Positions 52,931-63,683 of a stretch of DNA of 64,000 nt are shown here, in pieces. The translations under genes were made by a program, and so were the position numbers. The notes under the pieces were generated by a model. The model searched no databases and was not told where the DNA came from. It saw nothing but the letters and a program-made list of their open reading frames with translations. Position 1 is the first letter of the stretch. Every line of letters starts with the position of its first letter. The DNA is taken from sequence record SRR2962707_4378; one strand, given 5' to 3'.

Positions 52931-54682
52931 GTGTTCTGTGGCCAGACGATGACCCGTACTCAATGCCTCGATAGTGTCCTCCGGCTCCAAAGCCGAGCCC
53001 TCTTTATTGCTGGGACTCTCTCTTTCAGTCAGATCGCTTGGGCGCAAATTGACACCGACAATTGTATTGTCAGCGAAATCCAGCCGGACGCCATTGATCT
53101 TGACCAGCCCCGGGATCAACTGGCTCGCCAGAGTGATCTGGACATTCCAGAGGGTGCCCGCATCGGCCGGGTAAACATTATTCGGCGCCCGATCTTCGAT
53201 ACCAGCGATCCTGAACAGGACAACTTTCTTTATCGCACGCTGAACGCTCTAAATACCCCGACCTGGAAATCGGCCCTGCGTGCCCAGTTGGTGTTCGACG
53301 AAGGTGACGTTTACCAACCGGGTACGCTGGACGAATCCGAACGAATACTGCGGCAGAGTGAGTACCTGACGGCCGCGTGGATCGGTGTTACCCGCGTTTG
53401 CGGGAATGAGCTGGAAGTCACTGTCCTTGCACGTGACACCTGGACGTTACTGCCGAGCGTTGGTGCTTCCAGGACGGGAGGCGAGAATAAAACCAACACC
53501 GGCCTTTCTGATCCGAATTTCCTGGGTTCCGGCAAGAGCGTGGGGATTTCCCACAAAAAAGATGCCGACCGCAGCGAGACCAGTGTCGATTTCGACGATC
53601 CGAACGTGCTTGGCTCCCATTGGCAGGCAGGCCTTTCCTACGATAAGCGCAGTGATGGGCGCGGTCGCAGTGCCTACCTTGAGCGTCCATTCTACAGTGA
53701 GCTGGCGGAGTGGCGATTTGGCCTGAGTGGTGAGGATGACATTCGCGAACAATCCCGCTATGTGGGGGCGGAGGCAATTGCGGACTATCGGCAGGACCGC
53801 GATTTTGCCAGTGTTGATGTCGGCTGGCGACTGGCAGAACGCAATGGCAGCCAGTTAAGACTGCTTGCCGGTTTTCGCTACGATGCCCGGGCGTTTGAGC
53901 GCTTACCGGATGAAACCAATCTGGACCTTCTGCCCGATGATCGGACACTGAGCTACCCATGGGTCGGGTTTGACTACCGTGAGAACCGCTTCCGGGAAAT
54001 GACAAACCTGACTCGTCTGCAACGGGTCGAGGACGTGCGGGACGGCTTTGTGTGGCGTACCGAGCTGGGGTACTCCTCGCCGGGACTTGGAGCGACGGAA
54101 GACCGCGCCGTACTGAATATGGACTTCCGGGATGCTTTGCTGGCCACTGACACCAACTACGCCAGCTACGGGTTCAGTCAGAGCGGCACCTGGCGATTTG
54201 ACCAGCACCGTTTCGAGAACCTTATCGGAACCCTGAGCCTGGAGTACTTTCATGGCGGGGCAGTGGACTGGAACAGTTGGTACACCAACCTGTCGTTCAC
54301 GGCAGCGCACAATTTGACCGTGGATCAACAGCTTCTTATTGGCGGTGACAACGGCCTTCGTGGTTATCCGAGCAACTACCAGCAGGGCAACAGAAGAGCG
54401 CTGTGGACACTGGAGCGCCGTTACTTCCCGGACTGGCACCCTTTCGAGCTGTTTCGCATGGGGGGTGTGATTTTCACCGATGTAGGCAGAGCCTGGTTTG
54501 ATGATGGTCGCAATAACGGACCCGATGACGGCGTACTGACAGATGTGGGTTTTGGCCTCAGGTTGGCTTCAAGCCGGATAGAAGTACAGCGAATGCTGCA
54601 CCTGGACTTTGCCTTCCCGCTGGCGGGAGGCGACAGCGTTGACCAGGTGCAGGTGCTATTGCGGGGGCGGTCGCGGTTCTAG
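52931..54682 (+). CDS. Omp85/BamA-TamA-like outer membrane protein
   Basis: Signal peptide; POTRA-like ESERILR; GGDNGLRGY; C-terminal Phe. Confidence 0.8.
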   Translation: MFCGQTMTRTQCLDSVLRLQSRALFIAGTLSFSQIAWAQIDTDNCIVSEIQPDAIDLDQPRDQLARQSDLDIPEGARIGRVNIIRRPIFDTSDPEQDNFLYRTLNALNTPTWKSALRAQLVFDEGDVYQPGTLDESERILRQSEYLTAAWIGVTRVCGNELEVTVLARDTWTLLPSVGASRTGGENKTNTGLSDPNFLGSGKSVGISHKKDADRSETSVDFDDPNVLGSHWQAGLSYDKRSDGRGRSAYLERPFYSELAEWRFGLSGEDDIREQSRYVGAEAIADYRQDRDFASVDVGWRLAERNGSQLRLLAGFRYDARAFERLPDETNLDLLPDDRTLSYPWVGFDYRENRFREMTNLTRLQRVEDVRDGFVWRTELGYSSPGLGATEDRAVLNMDFRDALLATDTNYASYGFSQSGTWRFDQHRFENLIGTLSLEYFHGGAVDWNSWYTNLSFTAAHNLTVDQQLLIGGDNGLRGYPSNYQQGNRRALWTLERRYFPDWHPFELFRMGGVIFTDVGRAWFDDGRNNGPDDGVLTDVGFGLRLASSRIEVQRMLHLDFAFPLAGGDSVDQVQVLLRGRSRF

Positions 54683-54849
54683 ACCGATAGTCATGTTGCC
54701 TGTGAGCAGCGATTGGTGAAAACGATCTGATTCTAAAGCGAGGTAGTGCTAAAGACTCATAGAAACGGCTTCTTCGTCTCATAGACTGCACGAGCCATAT
54801 CGAATACGCTCGTGCTTTAGAACCAAACGCCGGACGCTGGAGAACACCA

Positions 54850-55452
54850 ATGACCTCAGCATCAACAACGCTCAGAGAGCTGAACGGCCTTAGCCTGGCC
54901 CCATCAAGTCTTTCCGAATCTGCTCTGATCATGATCGACTACCAGAATACCTACCTTGAAGGCGTCATGAAGCTTGAGGGGGCTGACAAAGCCATGGAAG
55001 AGGGCCGGAAACTTCTGGAACTGGCCCGCGGCGAAGGTATCCCGGTGTTTCATATTCGCCACGATGCTGGCCCAGGCTCACCCTATGACGTTAGTGCTCG
55101 CATTGGCGCCATTGCTGACGCGGTTGCGCCGAAAGACGGCGAGCCGGTTATTACCAAAAACTTTCCAAATTCGTTTGTGCAAACCGATCTGGATGAACAG
55201 CTCAAAGCTAAGGGTATTAAAAACCTCATCCTTGCAGGGTTTATGACGCACATGTGCATCAACTCAACCGCCCATGGTGGGTTCAACCTGGGGTATGCAC
55301 CTACCGTGGTCGCCAGTGCAACGGCCACCCGCTCCCTGAAGGCGGCAAATGGCAAGGTACTGTCCGCGCAGGAAGTGCATGACGGCGCATTGGCTTCAAC
55401 GAGGGATCTTTACGCCGCAGTTGTGGACAAGATAACGGATTTACCTGCTTGA
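54850..55452 (+). CDS. Cysteine hydrolase / isochorismatase family
   Basis: ALIMIDYQN, K.FPNSF, GFMTHMCI.ST. Confidence 0.92.
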   Translation: MTSASTTLRELNGLSLAPSSLSESALIMIDYQNTYLEGVMKLEGADKAMEEGRKLLELARGEGIPVFHIRHDAGPGSPYDVSARIGAIADAVAPKDGEPVITKNFPNSFVQTDLDEQLKAKGIKNLILAGFMTHMCINSTAHGGFNLGYAPTVVASATATRSLKAANGKVLSAQEVHDGALASTRDLYAAVVDKITDLPA

Positions 55453-55462
55453 TTGATCAATG

Positions 55463-55522
55463 GCTGGGCGCTTGGTGAGTTAGCGAAACACTTGAACGCC
55501 CAGCTCATACTAAGAGCTGGGC
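55463..55522. terminator. Overlapping inverted repeats between convergent genes
   Basis: GCCCAGCTC-N7-GAGCTGGGC (55498-55522) and GCTGGGCG...CGCCCAGC (55463-55504). Confidence 0.5.
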
Positions 55523-55544
55523 CAGCCACCCAGGAACAATAAGC

Positions 55545-57362
55545 CTATGGCTGCAGCAGGTTGCAGAGCTCATCGAGCGCCTTGGGAATTGATTCGGCAA
55601 AAGCGTCCATTTCGCTGGCAACCGTATTCGCTGTGCTTAAGTAGATTCTGAGACTGCCTGGCAGTAATACATATCCCACCCCAATGCAGGTTTCACTGGT
55701 TGAACCAAACCCAAAATGTTGAATGTGTTCTGAAGGTGCCGAGCTGGTACTCAGGGCGTCTGTTCTCATTGTGAGCCAGCCCGGAGAGTCATAAAGTGCC
55801 AGTGGTCGGTGCGCGCCGAGACGCTTGCCATCGCGCTGTTGTATGAGCTGTAGTTCCCATAAAAGCTGTTCCGGTGCGTCACCCATCTGGCAGGATTTTG
55901 CTCTTGCGACATGCGCTTTTGCTGCTGCCACTAGTGCGCTGCGACATTCTTCGTCGCTGGTGTCGCAGCTTTCCATAGCCATGACAAGCTGAAGTATTTC
56001 AGGAGTGACGACGCGCATGGCCTCGGTCCGCCCATGACGGTACTGACGGGTGGCGATTGACTCGTAAGTGGGCCCGATAAAACCTTTCGCACGGTAATGG
56101 GCGAGTTGGAAAGCCAATTGCACCAAAGCATCCGGAGAGACGTGAAGCTGTTTTGCTCGATTGGCTCCAAAAGTGTCCAGTGAAACCGTGGTAGATGTCA
56201 TGCTAGCTGCGTAATGTGAGAATTCTGTAGCGGCTTCCCGAATGTCTTTTCTCAATGCGTCATTCAGGACGAATTCAACGGGTGATATCAGCGTAGGGGA
56301 GCTGTCGTTGTCCTGCCCCAATGAGTTCGATGGGTTTGTAGGAGTCTCCATTAGACTGTCTACCAAGCTTAGTGCGGTCGTGCCATCCAGTTCACAGTGT
56401 TCGATGTTGATGCCGGCGTTACCGTCCTCCATGACTACCAGGGATAGAGATTTGTCGAACCAGCGATTACCGCCATTACCTCTGAGCAACTGGTTGCACG
56501 CTTCAAGGGTGGTTTGGGGCTGAATGTCGTCCAGGCACAGACAGAACAAGGCACGTTCAATACTGTCCAGAGACTCGCCGTTGATCGGGGAAATGCTCAG
56601 CAGCTGTTGCCGACTTTCTGCCCATTCGGCACGGGCTTTGGTCGTCAGATGACCAACCGACATGTCCACAGCTGCATGTGTCTCTGAAGCCGCCAGAATA
56701 ATCTCGATTGCGGACTGAATCTTACGCTGTGGTATTTGTTGACCGTCGACGTCCAGCACGTCCATTCGAAACATTCGCCCGTAACGGAACACCAGAATAT
56801 GCCGCGCACTGGACGGCCCCGGCCACTCTGGTGTGTATGGCGCGCGTACGGTATCAAGCGGGTCCCCGGGGATACGTGTGGTTGAAAACAGAAACTGGTG
56901 CTGGCGCATGGATAGGGGAGCTCCCCGCTGCATGTGCACCGGAACCTGACCTGAATCAAGCGCTTGTTTATAGGCTACCGCACGATCAACCAGCGTTGCC
57001 GCCCGATGAACAGAAGGTTCTCCGGTTTCCTTGAAAAGAAAGAAGAAATTGGCGTTGAGGGCGATTCGGTCACGCCGTCCCAGATATCGGTATTGCCAGA
57101 ACTTGTCGAGCCAACTGTATACGTCGCTGCGCTGATCGAACGCCTCAAGTGCTGAGTACAGTGTGTGTGAGGGACTATCAGACTTCAGGAATTCTGCCAC
57201 GGATGTAACGGTTTCCTGATACTCTGCGCTGGTGAGCAAGGGGCGACACCAGTCGAGAAAGTGCTCCGCACTCTGGTGCAATCCAGGAAGTTTAACTCGG
57301 GGCAGGTCTGCCTCTTTGGAAAAAGTCCCTGGCATGTTGGCTGTTTTGTCAGGCTTTTGCAT
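55545..57362 (-). CDS. Choline/carnitine O-acyltransferase family protein
   Basis: LP.V.LP.L, W...W...YL..R, TTRIPG, NRWFDK, catalytic EHCELDG, SPD...QLA.QLA, TYES..TR.Y.HGRTE, LSTS, GFG. Confidence 0.92.
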   Translation of the reverse strand: MQKPDKTANMPGTFSKEADLPRVKLPGLHQSAEHFLDWCRPLLTSAEYQETVTSVAEFLKSDSPSHTLYSALEAFDQRSDVYSWLDKFWQYRYLGRRDRIALNANFFFLFKETGEPSVHRAATLVDRAVAYKQALDSGQVPVHMQRGAPLSMRQHQFLFSTTRIPGDPLDTVRAPYTPEWPGPSSARHILVFRYGRMFRMDVLDVDGQQIPQRKIQSAIEIILAASETHAAVDMSVGHLTTKARAEWAESRQQLLSISPINGESLDSIERALFCLCLDDIQPQTTLEACNQLLRGNGGNRWFDKSLSLVVMEDGNAGINIEHCELDGTTALSLVDSLMETPTNPSNSLGQDNDSSPTLISPVEFVLNDALRKDIREAATEFSHYAASMTSTTVSLDTFGANRAKQLHVSPDALVQLAFQLAHYRAKGFIGPTYESIATRQYRHGRTEAMRVVTPEILQLVMAMESCDTSDEECRSALVAAAKAHVARAKSCQMGDAPEQLLWELQLIQQRDGKRLGAHRPLALYDSPGWLTMRTDALSTSSAPSEHIQHFGFGSTSETCIGVGYVLLPGSLRIYLSTANTVASEMDAFAESIPKALDELCNLLQP

Positions 57363-57364
57363 TG

Positions 57365-58216
57365 CTATTCTCTTGTGTCGGCATGGATCGGTTTTTCGTT
57401 GGCTGGCATTGAGATATACAGTTCTGCATAGAGCCAACCATCATCCTCAACGCCCCGGTAATCAACGCCTGCCTCCGCCAGCGCGGCAAGCACCCGCGCC
57501 TGTTCCTGTGGGACAGCGAATCGACGTTGCCTGAAAACGCCGGCCACTTTTCTGGTTTCGTAGCCCCGTACAGTCAACGCGTCAGCAACCGCTTTGAAAG
57601 AGAACATTCTCAGAACAAAGTGCGCCATCCAGGGGCGTTTTTCTCCGGAGGCATCGATAATTCGCGTGATGGTTTTTTCCGTCACATACCCCACACAACC
57701 GGTCGATAGAACGATGTCCGTGTTCTCAAGTTGCGCAAGCTGCTCTGCCGTGGGCTGGTCATGCTCAAAGTCCGCGTTTATCACATCGTCTAACAGCCCT
57801 GCGTCGATCGCGTACGTTAGTGCCGGGGCTGAGCAGTCGAGACCAATCCATCGGCTGTGATCTTTTGACGATTGCGCCGTCAGGCACATTCGGTCGCGTT
57901 TGATCAATGCGTCCCTGCACAGAGCCCCAGCGCTCTGGCAGCCGTAGTGTTTGTAAAGCCTGTTCATGTTGGTGCCGTAGCGAATCAGCGCGGCATTGAT
58001 GCCATAGGAGCTGCCAATGTCGACAATGGTTGGCGTCGACACTCGCCTAGTCCGGCGATAAGCGTCAATCAGGTTGGTAAAGTGGGGCAGCGCCAGTTGA
58101 GGGATGCAATAACCAAGCCGCTGGAGCGTTATGAAATAGTCACGGGGGTCCGGTGCGGTATAGATGTGATCCAGTGAGACTTTGCCGGTGTTGTCCAGTT
58201 GCGATGTATCGTTCAT
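57365..58216 (-). CDS. Class I SAM-dependent methyltransferase-like protein
   Basis: IVDIGSSYGINA, IGLDCS, ADFE, STGCVGYV. Confidence 0.8.
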   Translation of the reverse strand: MNDTSQLDNTGKVSLDHIYTAPDPRDYFITLQRLGYCIPQLALPHFTNLIDAYRRTRRVSTPTIVDIGSSYGINAALIRYGTNMNRLYKHYGCQSAGALCRDALIKRDRMCLTAQSSKDHSRWIGLDCSAPALTYAIDAGLLDDVINADFEHDQPTAEQLAQLENTDIVLSTGCVGYVTEKTITRIIDASGEKRPWMAHFVLRMFSFKAVADALTVRGYETRKVAGVFRQRRFAVPQEQARVLAALAEAGVDYRGVEDDGWLYAELYISMPANEKPIHADTRE

Positions 58217-58247
58217 TGCGCCTCCGTTAGCAAAAGCCTGTTGATAG

Positions 58248-59117
58248 CTAATCCAGCAAGTGATCGTTTCTTACCACAGCTCTTGCCGTATGGACTGGCG
58301 CCAGTCGTCCGAATAGCTGAAGGGTTCGTGTAGGGCTTCCAATAACACCCCTGCGTTCGCTGTACGCAAAGATCGCGGAGTGTCGAGTGGTCGCGCCTTC
58401 GACTCTGCTTACACGGTGCAGGGAGTAACGCCCCATGAAGAGCTGTAGGTCGCCGGGACACAGGTTGATCTTACGAATACGGCCGCTACGTGAGCCCCTG
58501 AGAACAGCGTTGACGTCTCTGAAGTGCTCTTCCTGAGCTGTGCGGATGTGCGGGCAATATTCAAATAGGCCACCCGCCTCTGGCGACTGGGTAAGCAGGC
58601 TGACAGTAAATTCATTCGTATCGAAGTGCCACGGATGCTCTTTGCCGGGAGCGATGACATTGAGTACGAGCCCGGAAAACGGGTCAGCCAGCTCGTGGAC
58701 GCGTTTAAGCTGGAAGCAATCTGCGATGAAACTCTGGAACAGTGGGTTGGTGTAGAGTTGCTGGATTATAGCCGTTGAGGGAATCTGGTCTCGTGCAACA
58801 AATGCGTTGCCACGTTCCATGGTCAGGTTGCCAGGGTGCCAACGGGGGAGCACCGTATTGATATCGATGTTGTAGGCGTTAACCATCTCCGTCCTGTAGT
58901 ACGCGTTGATCGCCATTGCTGAACTTTCAGCCTCAAGACGTACCAGAGCTTCCGGCAAAATAAAGGATGAAAGAATGGCGCAACCTTCCCTCGCCAAATC
59001 CTGACGTATACCGTCGATGGTGTCGTTCCAGGCACTGTCACCTGGCAGGGTCAGCGGGTACTTGGCGAGGTTTACACAGTTCTTGATGATGCTGTGCTGG
59101 AAACCGAAGAGGTTCAC
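58248..59117 (-). CDS. 2OG-Fe(II) dioxygenase of the BesD/HalD (ArpA-like) family, HxD hydroxylase type
   Basis: HPWHFDTNEF, GG.FEY.P.IR, PGDLQLF.GRYSLHRV, R...IFAY; GAGGAG SD favours GTG 59117 over ATG 59132. Confidence 0.82.
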   Translation of the reverse strand: MNLFGFQHSIIKNCVNLAKYPLTLPGDSAWNDTIDGIRQDLAREGCAILSSFILPEALVRLEAESSAMAINAYYRTEMVNAYNIDINTVLPRWHPGNLTMERGNAFVARDQIPSTAIIQQLYTNPLFQSFIADCFQLKRVHELADPFSGLVLNVIAPGKEHPWHFDTNEFTVSLLTQSPEAGGLFEYCPHIRTAQEEHFRDVNAVLRGSRSGRIRKINLCPGDLQLFMGRYSLHRVSRVEGATTRHSAIFAYSERRGVIGSPTRTLQLFGRLAPVHTARAVVRNDHLLD

Positions 59118-59273
59118 GGTGGCGCTCCTCATACGAAAATACTCAGCGGCATCGAAATGCCATATACGATGCGTTGAGTCTGGTTATCGCTGAGCCTAAA
59201 CCACGCTTCAGTTACGAATAACTGACATTTCGTCGGAACGCGCTGAGTATTTGGTCTTACTCAGTAGGAGGGG

Positions 59274-59303
59274 GCCACAGGCACAATGGGTTGTGCCTGT
59301 GGC
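59274..59303 (-). terminator. Perfect 13-bp hairpin just after the spondin ORF stop
   Basis: GCCACAGGCACAA-TGGG-TTGTGCCTGTGGC. Confidence 0.65.
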
Positions 59304-59309
59304 TATCGT

Positions 59310-59813
59310 CTACTGCACTCGCTCAATTTGTACTCGCGCAATAGGGTTATCCCAGCGCTGATTGCCTCCCAGTGTGGAGGTATTCAGTCCATCGTCTTGG
59401 GTAACGACTCCGGGGTGAACGTAAACGGCATTTCTAACATCGTCCCTATCGGCGTTGAAACCCTCGGCCAGTCCACTGGCAGCAGGACCGGGCACGGTGT
59501 CAGCGGATTCGGTATTGGCTTCGGTGCCGGCGTCGTAGGCGTTCAGGTTGTAGGTGTAAGTGCCAGGTAGGGTGGGCACTGTCAGGCTGTTGAGAGCCAG
59601 AAAGCCATCGTTGGTGGGCAGCAGCATGGCCACGACGGAAAGCTGTGTGTTGGCTGTGGCGTTGTTGGTATTGACGATTGCCGTCGTGGTCTCTCCTGGC
59701 GCTAACAGTCCCGCAGCGGGATTGGCAACCGTGGTGGCGCCCGCTGAGTCCGAGGCGGTAACCAACGGCATAATGTCACCATTTTTGGCGGCGCGCGCTA
59801 CTTGGCCGGTCAC
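59310..59813 (-). pseudogene. 5'-truncated spondin-domain gene remnant
   Basis: SVVAMLLPTNDGF, YDAGTEAN, HPGVV, WDNPIARV; no signal peptide or N-terminal half. Confidence 0.7.
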
Positions 59814-59891
59814 TATTAGGAGCGGAAGGGTTCTCTACGGCACAATACCTTTGGAACGCTTCTCTGAACCTGCCATGGGCCCCGAAAACAC

Positions 59892-60980
59892 GTGCTGACT
59901 CTGGACGAACAAACTGCGCAACGAATTGTCGACCGCACAATGCAAGCGATTGGTTGGTCCGTCAACGTGATGACGCCGGACGGTATTATTATCGCGTCCG
60001 GCGAGCCTCGCCGGGTCGGTGATCACCATGAAGCTGCGAAGCTTGTCGCCAGCAGTGGGCATCCACTGATCATTGATGACTCTCGCTCCGGCGCGTACTC
60101 GGGAACCCGTCCGGGTGTAAATCTGCCCGTCACCGTTGGCGGGGAGATGGCGGCTGTTGTTGGTATATCCGGTGCGCCTGAAGAGGTCTCCCAGTACGCG
60201 GATCTGGTTCGTATTACCGCTGAGCTAATGCTCGAGCAGGCGGCATTGCTGGAAGCAGGGCAGCATCGACGCCGACAGATTGAAGACGTGCTGCTGGCGG
60301 CGTGTGAAGGCAAAACCGTGCCGGAAATCTGGTTCGAGCAGTTGGGTATTGAAGCTGATTGTCCGAGGATAGGGCTGATACTCGAAGCAACAACCCAGGT
60401 TGCGGTGGAGCAGGTGCTTGTGCCGTTGGCACCCTATCTCGAGCAGCATCATCGAGCAGCGCTTACCGTTCGCCTGTCGCCAAGGCAGCTCCTGATTTTC
60501 GCGGAAACCGGGCCAGGCCAGTCTGAGTTCAAAAACCTGCTGGCAACCTTGGCTGCCCGTGGCAAAGACGACGTCATTCTTGCGACAGGAAAATCATTCA
60601 CCAGGAACTTCGTAGCCGGTTATCAGTCCGCTACCGCGACGCTGGAAGTGGGGCGCAGGAGAAAACCGGGAGCGAGCATTCTCCGCTATGAAGAGCTTCG
60701 AATCCCGGCGCTCTGGCAGAGTCTTGCGCCACACTGGCAGCAAGCTGAACTGCAGGCGCTGATTGAACCCCTTGTTGAGCATCGGCAGGGAGAACTCTAT
60801 CTCAAGACGCTGTCACGCTACATTGACTGTGACGGCGAAATAAAGCGGTGTGCTGATCAGCTAAACATCCACCCCAATACGGTGCGTTATCGACTGCAGA
60901 AAATCGAAGCGCTCACCAGGCTGTCTCCGTTTGTGCTCCGGGATTTGCTGGTGCTCCAGTTCGCCCTGGAAACACGTTAG
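59892..60980 (+). CDS. cdaR: CdaR sugar-diacid utilisation regulator
   Basis: AQ.IV.RTM, NVM...G.IIASG...R.G..H.AA, GVNLP, IHPNT.RYRL. Confidence 0.9.
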   Translation: MLTLDEQTAQRIVDRTMQAIGWSVNVMTPDGIIIASGEPRRVGDHHEAAKLVASSGHPLIIDDSRSGAYSGTRPGVNLPVTVGGEMAAVVGISGAPEEVSQYADLVRITAELMLEQAALLEAGQHRRRQIEDVLLAACEGKTVPEIWFEQLGIEADCPRIGLILEATTQVAVEQVLVPLAPYLEQHHRAALTVRLSPRQLLIFAETGPGQSEFKNLLATLAARGKDDVILATGKSFTRNFVAGYQSATATLEVGRRRKPGASILRYEELRIPALWQSLAPHWQQAELQALIEPLVEHRQGELYLKTLSRYIDCDGEIKRCADQLNIHPNTVRYRLQKIEALTRLSPFVLRDLLVLQFALETR

Positions 60981-60982
60981 AA

Positions 60983-61004
60983 AAATTGTTCAAGTCCACA
61001 ATTT
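60983..61004. promoter_or_regulatory. Candidate CdaR binding palindrome
   Basis: AAATTGT-N8-ACAATTT upstream of the permease. Confidence 0.55.
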
Positions 61005-61129
61005 AATGTACTAAATTAGCAAAAAAATTGTTCTCTTCGCTAACGACCAGGGTGCTGTCAACTTTTAAACTAGCTGCCGAGGAATGCCGTCCCCTACGCA
61101 TAGAAAACAATACTGAACGGAGAGTATGA

Positions 61130-62473
61130 ATGCATCTGGTCCTGATTCTGCTGGTATTGATCGTTTTTATCGTATTTGCCACCAGCAAGCTCAAGCTGAA
61201 CCCCTTCATTACCCTGTTACTGGCCTCTTTCCTGGCCGCATTTGCTTTTGGCCTGCCAATCGACACCATCGAGAGTACCATCAGGTCGGGTTTCGGCGGC
61301 ATTCTGGGATACATCGGTTTGGTGATCGTTTTAGGCACCATCATCGGTGTCATACTTGAGCGCACCGGTGCAGCCATTGTCATGGCGGAGAGTATCGTCA
61401 AACTGCTGGGCCAGCGTTTCCCGACGCTGACGATGTCGCTGGTTGGCTTTATCGTGTCCATCCCGGTGTTTTGCGACTCGGGTTTCGTGATCCTGAACAG
61501 CCTTAAACGATCCATGGCGAGGAAGCTCAGTGTGTCACCGGTAGCCATGACGGTGGCCCTTTCCACAGGGCTGTTTGCAACCCACACTCTGGTTCCACCC
61601 ACGCCAGGCCCCATCGCGGCAGCCGGCAATCTGGGGCTGGAAGACAACCTGGGGCTGGTTATTGCCGTTGGCTTTGTGTTTGCTTTGATTGCCGCGCTGG
61701 CAGGCCTGTTCTGGGCGAGCAGGAGCCGGAATCTGGGCAGCACAGAGCTTGAGCTGGCAGAAGAGGCGTTTGAGGAGGCCAGAGAGCACTATGGTGAGCT
61801 GCCGACTCCCTGGGCTGCATTTGCACCGATCTTTGTCCCGATACTATTGATTTGTATGGGGTCGGTTGCGAGCTATCCGACGGCTCCGCTCGGAGAGGGA
61901 GCTCTGTACGAGACGCTGAATTTCCTTGGTAAGCCTCTGAACGCATTGATGATTGGCCTTGGCTTCGCTTTGATGCTTATTCAGGGCAAGCAAAAGCTGG
62001 ATGAATTCGCCCGTCATACGCAAAAGGGCCTGGAGGTATCTGCACCCATTATCCTGATCACCGGTGCGGGCGGGGCCTTTGGCAGTGTGTTGGCTGAAAC
62101 GGCATTGGGGGATTATCTTGGAGATACGCTCTCGACACTTGGGTTGGGTGTCATCATGCCGTTCCTCGTTGCCGCCGCGCTGAAATCCGCGCAGGGCTCT
62201 TCAACCGTTGCGCTGGTCACTACGTCGGCGCTTGTGGCGCCCCTGATGACGCAACTGGGGCTGGACTCGGAATTCGGTCGCGTGTTGACGGTGATGGCCA
62301 TCGGTGCTGGCGCCATGACGGTTTCCCACGCCAACGACAGTTATTTCTGGGTGGTTTCCCAGTTCAGCAAGATGGATGTGGCTACGGCCTATAAGTCCCA
62401 TACCACGGCAACACTGATTATGGGGCTGGTCACGATTTCAATGGTTTGGCTGACCTCACTGGTAGCACTGTAA
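61130..62473 (+). CDS. GntP family permease (probable glycerate transporter)
   Basis: IPVFCDSGF, PPTPGP, AQGSSTVA, SHANDSYFWVV. Confidence 0.92.
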   Translation: MHLVLILLVLIVFIVFATSKLKLNPFITLLLASFLAAFAFGLPIDTIESTIRSGFGGILGYIGLVIVLGTIIGVILERTGAAIVMAESIVKLLGQRFPTLTMSLVGFIVSIPVFCDSGFVILNSLKRSMARKLSVSPVAMTVALSTGLFATHTLVPPTPGPIAAAGNLGLEDNLGLVIAVGFVFALIAALAGLFWASRSRNLGSTELELAEEAFEEAREHYGELPTPWAAFAPIFVPILLICMGSVASYPTAPLGEGALYETLNFLGKPLNALMIGLGFALMLIQGKQKLDEFARHTQKGLEVSAPIILITGAGGAFGSVLAETALGDYLGDTLSTLGLGVIMPFLVAAALKSAQGSSTVALVTTSALVAPLMTQLGLDSEFGRVLTVMAIGAGAMTVSHANDSYFWVVSQFSKMDVATAYKSHTTATLIMGLVTISMVWLTSLVAL

Positions 62474-62474
62474 T

Positions 62475-63611
62475 ATGCGGATCCTCATCGCGCCCGACTC
62501 ATTCAAGGAGTGTCTGCCTGCCAAGGAGGTGGCGGCTGCGATTGCGCGCGGTTGGAGTCGGGGGGCGCCGACGGATGAGGTGGTGCAGGTTCCGCTCGCC
62601 GATGGCGGCGAGGGAACCACGGTGGCCCTGGTAGAGTCGCAAAACGGGACGCTGCATTGTGCTGACGTAACGGGGCCGCTGGGTGATCCAGTAACGGCGC
62701 AATATGGTCTGGTCGCCGACGGCCGCACTGCTATTGTTGAAGTGGCTGAGGGCAGTGGGTTGCACCATGTGCCTGCCGGCCGAAGGGATGCCATGAAGGC
62801 AACCAGCCGGGGGACGGGAGAGCTCATCAAGGCCGCCATGAAGCATAGACCGGATACCCTGGTGATGTGTCTGGGCGGCAGCGCAACAACCGATGGTGGT
62901 GCTGGTATTCTTCAGGCCCTTGGCGCCCGGTTGTTGGACTCCGGCGGTCAGGAAATTCCGGCAGGTGGCGCCGGCCTGGCTTTGTTGTCGAGTCTCGACG
63001 TGTCCCCCGCCGTTAAAGCACTGGAGAACACTCGCCTGGTTGTCGCCTGTGATGTCAGCAACCCGCTGAACGGCGCCGATGGCGCCGCAGCCGTGTTTGG
63101 CCCCCAGAAAGGGGCCACTCCTGCACAGGTGGCCGAACTGGACCGTAACCTGAGCCGGTTTGCGGACATTGCGGACAAATCCGGGTACGACATACGTTCG
63201 TTTCCGGGCAGCGGTGCCGCAGGCGGAATTGGAGGAATGGTTGCGGGTATTCTGGGGGCCAGCCTGAAGTCTGGAATCGAGCTGGTGATGGAGACCATGG
63301 GGCTTGAGACACAGATGCGTTCGGCGGATCTTGTAATCACGGCGGAAGGGGCGATTGATGGCCAGAGTGCGGCAGGGAAGACACCAGCAGGTGTATCAGC
63401 TTTGGCCCGAAAGCACGGCGTGCCGGTTCTTGGCCTGGGTGGAAAAGTGGGCAGTGACTTGACGGCCCTTCATGACCTGGGATTGGCGGCAGCGTTCTCT
63501 ATTGTGCCAGAACCGATGACGCTTGATGAGGCTATGCGGGATGGACAGAAAAACCTGGAACAATGTGCAGAACAGCTAGCCCGGCTGATTCATGCCATTC
63601 GTGGGCAATGA
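62475..63611 (+). CDS. glxK: Glycerate kinase (GlxK/GarK family)
   Basis: APDSFKE, PLADGGEGT, GGSATTDGG, FGPQKGA, GAAGG, GKTP. Confidence 0.93.
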   Translation: MRILIAPDSFKECLPAKEVAAAIARGWSRGAPTDEVVQVPLADGGEGTTVALVESQNGTLHCADVTGPLGDPVTAQYGLVADGRTAIVEVAEGSGLHHVPAGRRDAMKATSRGTGELIKAAMKHRPDTLVMCLGGSATTDGGAGILQALGARLLDSGGQEIPAGGAGLALLSSLDVSPAVKALENTRLVVACDVSNPLNGADGAAAVFGPQKGATPAQVAELDRNLSRFADIADKSGYDIRSFPGSGAAGGIGGMVAGILGASLKSGIELVMETMGLETQMRSADLVITAEGAIDGQSAAGKTPAGVSALARKHGVPVLGLGGKVGSDLTALHDLGLAAAFSIVPEPMTLDEAMRDGQKNLEQCAEQLARLIHAIRGQ

Positions 63612-63625
63612 CGCCCGGGCCACAG

Positions 63626-63652
63626 AAAAGGGCCACTCCTGAAAGTGGCCCT
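63626..63652 (-). terminator. Rho-independent terminator between convergent genes
   Basis: AGGGCCACT-N6-AGTGGCCCT with an A-run on the + side. Confidence 0.7.
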
Positions 63653-63683
63653 CATCGTTAAGTGGATAATGTAACGAGAAGCG

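Follow-up and report, generated by a model that had tools for sequence, protein, structure and literature searches.

A conserved gene trio for an oxygenase, a methyltransferase-fold protein and a choline/carnitine acyltransferase, apparently an undescribed small-molecule pathway

Introduction

Choline/carnitine O-acyltransferases are textbook eukaryotic enzymes, and eukaryotic carnitine biosynthesis, which uses trimethyllysine and gamma-butyrobetaine hydroxylases, follows a logic of N-methylation, 2-oxoglutarate (2OG)-dependent hydroxylation and O-acylation. No paper assigning the bacterial choline/carnitine acyltransferases a pathway was found in the accessible text of the literature searched. 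In this study, we analyzed a stretch of 64,000 nucleotides from sequence record SRR2962707_4378 (hereafter, the window), which is present in marine metagenome runs and whose host lineage appears to be a marine gammaproteobacterium. The window contains three adjacent genes (hereafter, the trio) encoding an Fe(II)/2OG oxygenase (gene 1), a protein with the fold of class I S-adenosylmethionine (SAM)-dependent methyltransferases (gene 2), and a choline/carnitine O-acyltransferase of Pfam family PF00755 (gene 3).

The trio shares the logic of eukaryotic carnitine biosynthesis but uses another oxygenase family, has no aldolase or dehydrogenase gene, and shows an altered acyltransferase pocket. Gene 1 is most similar to the BesD, HalA, HalB, and HalD halogenases and to Hydrox/LDO (6NIE, 7U6I, 7U6H, and 7JSD), with which it shares an HxxWH motif, a probable carboxylate Arg, and a C-terminal lid region, its HxD motif being that of Hydrox. 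It differs from these enzymes in its low identity (15-20%), Thr in place of Asp after the metal-binding triad, an insertion in the substrate hairpin, a different lid, and its methyltransferase and acyltransferase partners. The gene 2 product resembles several class I SAM methyltransferases that are tied as matches (NovO, MmtN, and the sarcosine/dimethylglycine and phosphoethanolamine N-methyltransferases) in its Rossmann fold, acidic motif I, and end-of-beta-2 residues, whereas it is only 8-18% identical to them and has a long helical insertion after motif I and the motif DxG(C/S)SYG. Gene 3 shares with CrAT, CrOT, CPT2, and ChAT the two-domain length, the HxxxDG His, the TYES, GRTE, and STS motifs, one CoA Lys, and the Asp/Glu pair; in contrast to the eukaryotic enzymes, DRH is changed to EQH or EQL, WE follows one turn on, the first CoA Lys is lost, and the gene lies beside, and is often fused to, that of a methyltransferase. 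The methylguanidine demethylation enzymes MgdH and MgdL also combine a 2OG oxygenase with an unannotated partner acting on a small methylated nitrogen compound. According to PMC12508155, MgdH is a 41-kDa protein and MgdL a modelled beta-barrel lyase, and there is no acyltransferase; this pair was rejected as a relative on size and fold, the distinction being made without direct sequence comparison. No description of the trio was found in the literature searched, although a mention in subscription papers or supplementary gene tables is conceivable, and the first-pass annotation, a reading of the window made without database searches that called this a candidate undescribed pathway, holds to this extent. 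The trio draws on three known superfamilies, with each pocket altered or uncharacterized, and apparently represents a small-molecule pathway that has not been described before.

Linkage of the three genes

Searching GTDB with the alignment of gene 2 yielded at least 599 confirmed matches, and the best 80, all from Actinomycetota, were kept. An oxygenase gene upstream and an acyltransferase gene downstream on the same strand were identified in 79 of these 80 loci (50-61% identity; 78 in a stricter automatic recount), a co-occurrence far above chance, and the carriers include many soil actinomycetes. In the reverse search, PF00755 was found in 11 of 251 Actinomycetes genomes, in 12 copies, and in 3 of 351 genomes of a phylum-wide sample. 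Nine of the 12 copies belonged to a full trio (eight plus L005), and the other three comprised one with an oxygenase and a methyltransferase fragment, one with a methyltransferase only, and one divergent copy (27%) standing alone. Additionally, both adjacent pairs occur as fusions: PF00755 was listed in 26 of 29 long gene 2 homologues and HalD in two, with no domain in P0148; P0141 is a clean oxygenase-methyltransferase fusion, and P0149 looks frameshifted. Taken together, the trio is a real, conserved module, which supports a shared pathway. The first-pass annotation had proposed a joint pathway from three co-oriented genes and suggested a search for their co-occurrence, and the conserved order and the fusions agree with it, as do the coordinates and the spacing of the genes (31 bp between genes 1 and 2, and 2 bp between genes 2 and 3). 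Its three enzyme assignments are likewise supported by the HalD profile and HalB fold, the SAM-methyltransferase fold, and the PF00755 profile described below.

Flanking genes of the 80 loci were clustered from open reading frames (ORFs) of at least 90 aa that passed a codon filter, and no conserved fourth gene was found among them, the commonest flanking family occurring in 17 loci. This lack of a further conserved neighbor suggests that the substrates are probably housekeeping metabolites. The convergent isochorismatase-family gene of the window was rejected as a fourth member, with tblastn matches in none of the 80 actinomycete loci. The acyltransferase was absent from all plasmid records searched, and no riboswitch or known RNA was detected in 10 loci at Rfam gathering thresholds. 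One genome (G1367) carried two complementary partial copies, one with an oxygenase, a methyltransferase fragment, and an acyltransferase (L144) and the other with a methyltransferase and an acyltransferase (L145); this arrangement could be a binning artefact.

Oxygenase

Residues are numbered on translations of 294 aa (gene 1), 283 aa (gene 2), and 605 aa (gene 3). Gene 1 matched the HalD profile (PF23169; E 2e-13, 50.6 bits against a cut-off of 26), and its structural model (pLDDT 90) had HalB (7u6i) as the top fold match (Z 21.4, TM ~0.65, rmsd 3.4, 231 aligned residues, 20% identity), the next family after the HalB type reaching only Z 16.2. The top Foldseek ranks were HalB, HalD, Hydrox, BesD, and HalA, at 15-18% identity. 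The iron ligands H169 (in H169-F-D171), D171, and H239 and the 2OG Arg R250 were found in 90/90 trio sequences, and these residues together with R107, H166, and T172 were each conserved in 88-90 of 90. The invariant HxD..H triad indicates a hydroxylase-type enzyme rather than a halogenase, as had been proposed from the HFD of the window; a BesD-type radical halogenase was rejected, since D171 occupies in all 90 sequences the position where halogenases carry HxG/A (HWG in HalB).

H166 corresponds in the alignment to the leading His of HGWH in HalB and Hydrox. Only by ungapped extrapolation does R107 (89/90) come within a single residue of HalB Arg83, described in PMC10041140 as a carboxylate ligand. 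The trio oxygenase seems to bind a carboxylate through R107 and H166. The residue following the triad is Thr (T172) in 88/90 sequences and Asp in BesD, where it presumably binds the alpha-amine. This replacement may argue against free lysine as the substrate and gives no support to the Lys-type substrate binding of BesD, although the His is kept and the Arg is plausible by extrapolation. The C-terminal R.D.LLD tail is invariant, and the trio oxygenases formed a single clade (support 100/99) in a tree on a subsample of 54 rows.

Methyltransferase-fold protein

Gene 2 itself had no match in Pfam or NCBIfam, and Methyltransf_12 was matched by 20 of 76 homologues. Its model (pLDDT 88) retrieved about 50 near-tied class I SAM methyltransferases at Z 11-12, none of which stands out. 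The Rossmann fold, motif I, and the acidic end of beta-2 are present: D66, G68, and D127 were found in 91/91 trio sequences, and motif I (D66-x-G-x-S-Y-G), E151, STGCxGY, LRM, and QR in 91/91 or nearly. Judged by this model, gene 2 encodes a methyltransferase-fold protein without a close characterized relative. R203, Q230, and R231 are invariant, which suggests an anionic substrate. The trio methyltransferases also formed a single clade (support 100/99; subsample of 38 rows). The window lineage carries Ser at residue 69, which is usually Cys.

Acyltransferase

Gene 3 matched PF00755 (E 3e-155, 518 bits), and its best PDB sequence matches, aligned over the full length, were CPT2 (top), CrAT, ChAT, and CrOT (E 1e-61 to 1e-50). 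The first-pass annotation had listed HxxxDG, TYES..GRTE, and STS as kept, and all are present, with H322 of EHCELDG in 91/91, T446 in 91/91, and STS in 89-90/90 sequences. D411 and E434 (91/91), K404 (90/91), and Y433 are also retained, and the first CoA Lys is lost, K404 being the one that remains. The roles of the catalytic His, CoA Lys, and Asp/Glu pair in carnitine acyltransferases are described in PMC11852590.

Q499 aligns with the Arg of the DRH motif in CrAT, CPT2, and CrOT and is Gln in 89/90 sequences, with W502 and E503 conserved shortly after it. In carnitine enzymes, this Arg (CrAT Arg518) contacts the carboxylate of carnitine, ChAT having Asn in its place, and its replacement by Gln argues against L-carnitine as the substrate. 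F550 occupies the CrAT Met position, where a bulky residue presumably favors short acyl chains, and G-F at 551-552 is shared with CPT2. The aromatic residues W89, Y93, and F552 are kept; such residues line the trimethylammonium site of carnitine enzymes. The signature of choline acetyltransferase is GRVDN and DNH, and the trio has GRTE and EQH.

The only Arg among the 90 residues at the Q499 position belongs to L153 (G1203:C4), a stand-alone actinomycete PF00755 gene that is 27% identical and retains the DR motif; as a true carnitine acyltransferase, it is a more plausible candidate than the trio gene. Near window position 55865, the window lineage carries Leu at residue 500, which is the His of EQH/DRH in 88/90 homologues.

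Proposed pathway and alternatives

We propose that the trio is a self-contained biosynthetic module acting on common cytoplasmic metabolites, in which three enzymes would N-methylate, hydroxylate, and O-acetylate a small molecule; we give this a probability of roughly 0.45. The SAM enzyme would N-methylate the amine of a free amino acid or omega-amino acid, and the Fe/2OG enzyme would then hydroxylate an unactivated carbon of the carboxylate-bearing methylated product. Last, acyl-CoA would donate a short acyl chain (probably acetyl) to the newly formed hydroxyl, a step catalyzed by the PF00755 enzyme. These steps would yield an ester of betaine or choline type with the core methylated-N-CH2-CH(OAc)-R, resembling acetylcarnitine but probably differing from it. 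It could derive, for instance, from a lysine, ornithine, or 5-aminovalerate betaine, and possible roles are those of a secreted signal, a compatible solute, or an acetyl buffer. All substrates, the N-methylation, the step order, the acetyl donor, and the role are inferred. Of the products suggested by the first-pass annotation, a methylated amine or betaine is plausible, and the sister oxygenase clade lies with DddP-like genes, two of its loci also having betaine-binding proteins (see below); an acyl-L-carnitine product does not fit the Gln in 89/90 sequences.

Several observations weigh against this biosynthetic module. A conserved transporter or regulator gene is missing from the 80 loci, which is odd for a signal or an osmolyte, and the low identity to BesD-family structures weakens deductions about the oxygenase pocket. 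The fold match of gene 2 is generic, and O-, C-, and S-methylases share this fold, as do SAM enzymes that do not methylate. Likewise, the roles of CrAT Arg518, Thr465, Met564, and Phe566 are assumed. Furthermore, a catabolic setting is suggested for the sister oxygenase clade by its LysR, DddP-like, and uptake genes. None of 21 distant full-length methyltransferase homologues, mostly solitary, has a HalD-like or PF00755 gene beside it, and one sits among purU and sarcosine-oxidase genes.

Alternatively, gene order might mirror reaction order, the amino acid being hydroxylated, methyl-esterified at its carboxylate (or put through another SAM reaction such as aminocarboxypropyl transfer or cyclization), and finally O-acylated with the carboxylate masked or removed. 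This route would account for an oxygenase with an apparent carboxylate site that is paired with an acyltransferase without the carboxylate Arg. Arg203 and Arg231 of the methyltransferase could hold the anion, the fusions pair oxygenase with methyltransferase and methyltransferase with acyltransferase, and distant methyltransferases lie beside other 2OG oxygenases in 2/21 loci by Pfam and two more by motif only. Nevertheless, we consider it unlikely, since the acyltransferase retains the presumed trimethylammonium-site aromatics, the loss of the amine-binding Asp is easier to explain with a nitrogen already methylated, and gene order is weak evidence for reaction order. Somewhat more unlikely is detoxification or salvage, in which an external amine, betaine, or alkaloid would be modified by N-methyl hydroxylation, methylation, and acetylation, with no product of the cell's own being made. 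The transporter-linked LysR and DddP-like loci of the sister oxygenases fit such a function, as do the rhizobial-plasmid homologues of the methyltransferase, whose neighbors include purU, sarcosine oxidase, DoeA-like, and EutA-like genes, and 2OG enzymes can demethylate through N-methyl hydroxylation (PMC12508155). However, conserved genes for import, regulation, or downstream catabolism are missing around the trio in the 80 loci, the cost in SAM and acetyl-CoA suits synthesis or inactivation more than nutrition, and MgdH and MgdL differ from the trio proteins in size or fold.

True de novo acetylcarnitine synthesis, from GABA through gamma-butyrobetaine (methyltransferase) and carnitine (oxygenase) to acetylcarnitine, would need just three steps, three enzymes, and common metabolites. 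An oxygenase that keeps the carboxylate site and loses the alpha-amine site fits an omega-amino-acid betaine, and TYES, GRTE, and STS are kept. We nonetheless regard it as improbable, since the DRH Arg of CrAT, CPT2, and CrOT is replaced in the trio while the unlinked L153 retains it, and gamma-butyrobetaine hydroxylase is absent among the oxygenase fold matches listed. A macromolecular or lipid target, such as lysine in a protein or a long-chain ester resembling a betaine lipid, appears slightly more improbable still. Methylation, hydroxylation, and acylation all occur as protein modifications, and the top sequence match is the long-chain enzyme CPT2, with its shared G-F; against this, F550 would presumably restrict the pocket to short acyl chains, and no conserved target gene was found among the flanking ORFs of at least 90 aa. 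In addition, the C-terminal lid of BesD-fold enzymes closes over small substrates (PMC10041140), and the trio oxygenases have an invariant C-terminal tail.

Related genes outside the trio

The nearest non-trio oxygenases were 42-46% identical (L126 and L129-L133) or 35% identical (L128), and each of the seven genes is immediately followed by a DddP-like M24 gene, in most cases with a divergent LysR gene as well, whereas the other 9 of 16 non-trio oxygenase loci lack this pairing. This recurring unit of LysR, HalD-like HxD oxygenase, and DddP-like M24 genes (e.g., L126:5902-8103) sometimes includes betaine-type or peptide ABC binding proteins, those of L126 and L130 being of betaine type. True DddP dimethylsulfoniopropionate (DMSP) lyases were rejected as neighbors, since all seven scored 286-347 bits on NF043017 against a cut-off of 600 and are DddP-like only. 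The unit looks like an undescribed catabolic pathway whose oxygenase is the sister group of that of the trio. In L127, a HalD-family oxygenase (33% identical) lies between LysR and DUF2817 peptidase genes and adjoins urea carboxylase genes; Pantoea plasmids commonly carry this type (70 of the 92 matching records).

The 21 distant gene 2 homologues comprised 14 of 28 plasmid matches and seven genome matches. Their neighbors included a DIOX_N oxygenase in two loci and, in two others, an unannotated protein with an oxygenase-like motif together with an EutA-like gene. In these latter loci (L120:4965-7412 and L123:5992-8441), on Rhizobium and Roseibium plasmids, the methyltransferase gene is followed by that of a 255-aa WHAD..GG.L..HRV..R protein and by one resembling EutA/arylmalonate decarboxylase; an EamA transporter gene is close by. 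The 255-aa proteins were rejected as relatives of the trio oxygenase (hhalign probability 0.7%); with no Pfam match and a best PDB E of 0.05-0.9, they are oxygenase-like by motif only. Other rhizobial-plasmid homologues (L158, L159, L124, and L157) lie beside DIOX_N, purU, sarcosine oxidase, ATP-grasp, or DoeA-like peptidase genes.

Genomic context, transcription and acquisition

The features of the locus are listed in Table 1. For gene 1, a GTG start at 59117, downstream of AGGAG, is likelier from the sequence and would give 289 aa as in P0299; for gene 3, the ORF finder chose an upstream TTG (630 aa). Automatic database names were 'arpA protein' or 'HalD/BesD family halogenase' for gene 1 and 'class I SAM-dependent methyltransferase' for gene 2.

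Table 1. Features in and around the trio (window positions)
Feature	Coordinates	Strand	Remarks
Gene 1, BesD/HalB-fold Fe(II)/2OG oxygenase	58248..59132	-	294 aa if ATG start
Gene 2, class I SAM-methyltransferase-fold protein, uncharacterized family	57365..58216	-	283 aa
Gene 3, choline/carnitine O-acyltransferase PF00755, trio-specific subfamily	55545..57362	-	605 aa if ATG start
Isochorismatase-family hydrolase, convergent neighbor	54850..55452	+	Pfam PF00857
Spondin-domain remnant, chimera of two tandem genes, outside the module	59310..59813	-	NF038123 E 3e-36
Variable segment with the trio, 9 kb	54697..63683		absent from nearest genome G001
RNA-seq contig stretch, candidate transcription unit	55145..59176		run X16
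Omp85-domain outer-membrane protein gene	52931..54682		

In RNA-seq run X16, one contig of 4032 nt (depth 42; flanks 0-5) begins about 45-60 nt upstream of gene 1 and ends within the isochorismatase-family gene. Contigs carry no strand, start, or level, and this one is suggestive of a single transcript over the trio. Run X18 covered parts only, and run X14, which covered everything flat, may be DNA. A sigma-70 promoter scan found none (2.6 expected). The dN/dS values against L106 were 0.20, 0.13, and 0.21 for the trio genes and 0.03-0.14 for five neighbors; judged by these ratios, the trio is under purifying selection.

The trio occurs in 2 of 191 genomes of the nearest genome's genus, in the same context in both, and the metagenome scan gave only three copies, which are identical. 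Gene 2 homologues were found in 9/401 genomes of a class sample and 5/401 of a phylum sample, with neither partner beside any examined. From this patchy distribution, the trio was likely acquired horizontally. The distribution also makes actinomycetes the likely source, although the trees leave the direction unestablished: nesting of the window lineage within actinomycetes is weak in both, and actinomycete monophyly was not rejected (p-AU 0.39). The first-pass annotation had also proposed acquisition as a cassette; transfer is thus likely, but its argument from a broken spondin gene was refuted. In L106, two intact tandem spondin-domain genes (L106:5661-7144) adjoin the trio, and the window remnant arose through two internal deletions (about 285 and 740 bp, with 6- and 25-bp junction overlaps), so that the broken gene is no insertion scar. 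L107 aligns with the window through the remnant without a break. The comparison of GC and codon usage that the first-pass annotation had suggested gave a weak signal, the trio being only slightly low (GC 54-55%, GC3 0.56-0.62) against 16 other genes (56-62%, 0.57-0.72), with the isochorismatase gene at 54%. The Omp85-domain gene had a dS against L106 of 0.41, higher than that of its neighbors (0.06-0.21), which suggests a recombination boundary.

Conclusion

Eleven of the 12 PF00755 copies in the sampled Actinomycetes come from the module or its remnants, and solving the trio would therefore explain most of this family there. Lacking an NRPS, PKS, or terpene core, the cluster is probably overlooked by core-based genome mining; at 3.6 kb, with probably soluble proteins and common cofactors only, it is directly testable. 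Solving the trio would supply a first substrate for a large uncharacterized methyltransferase family and for a new branch of the BesD C-H functionalization family. More tentatively, and with doubt prevailing, actinomycete species in the hundreds, along with a few marine bacteria, might make their own acetylcholine- or acetylcarnitine-like quaternary-ammonium ester through a three-gene route with a new family of small-molecule N-methyltransferases and a BesD-fold betaine hydroxylase. If this is true, a bacterial choline/carnitine acyltransferase would be placed in a definite pathway, and bacteria might possess a signal of the cholinergic type.

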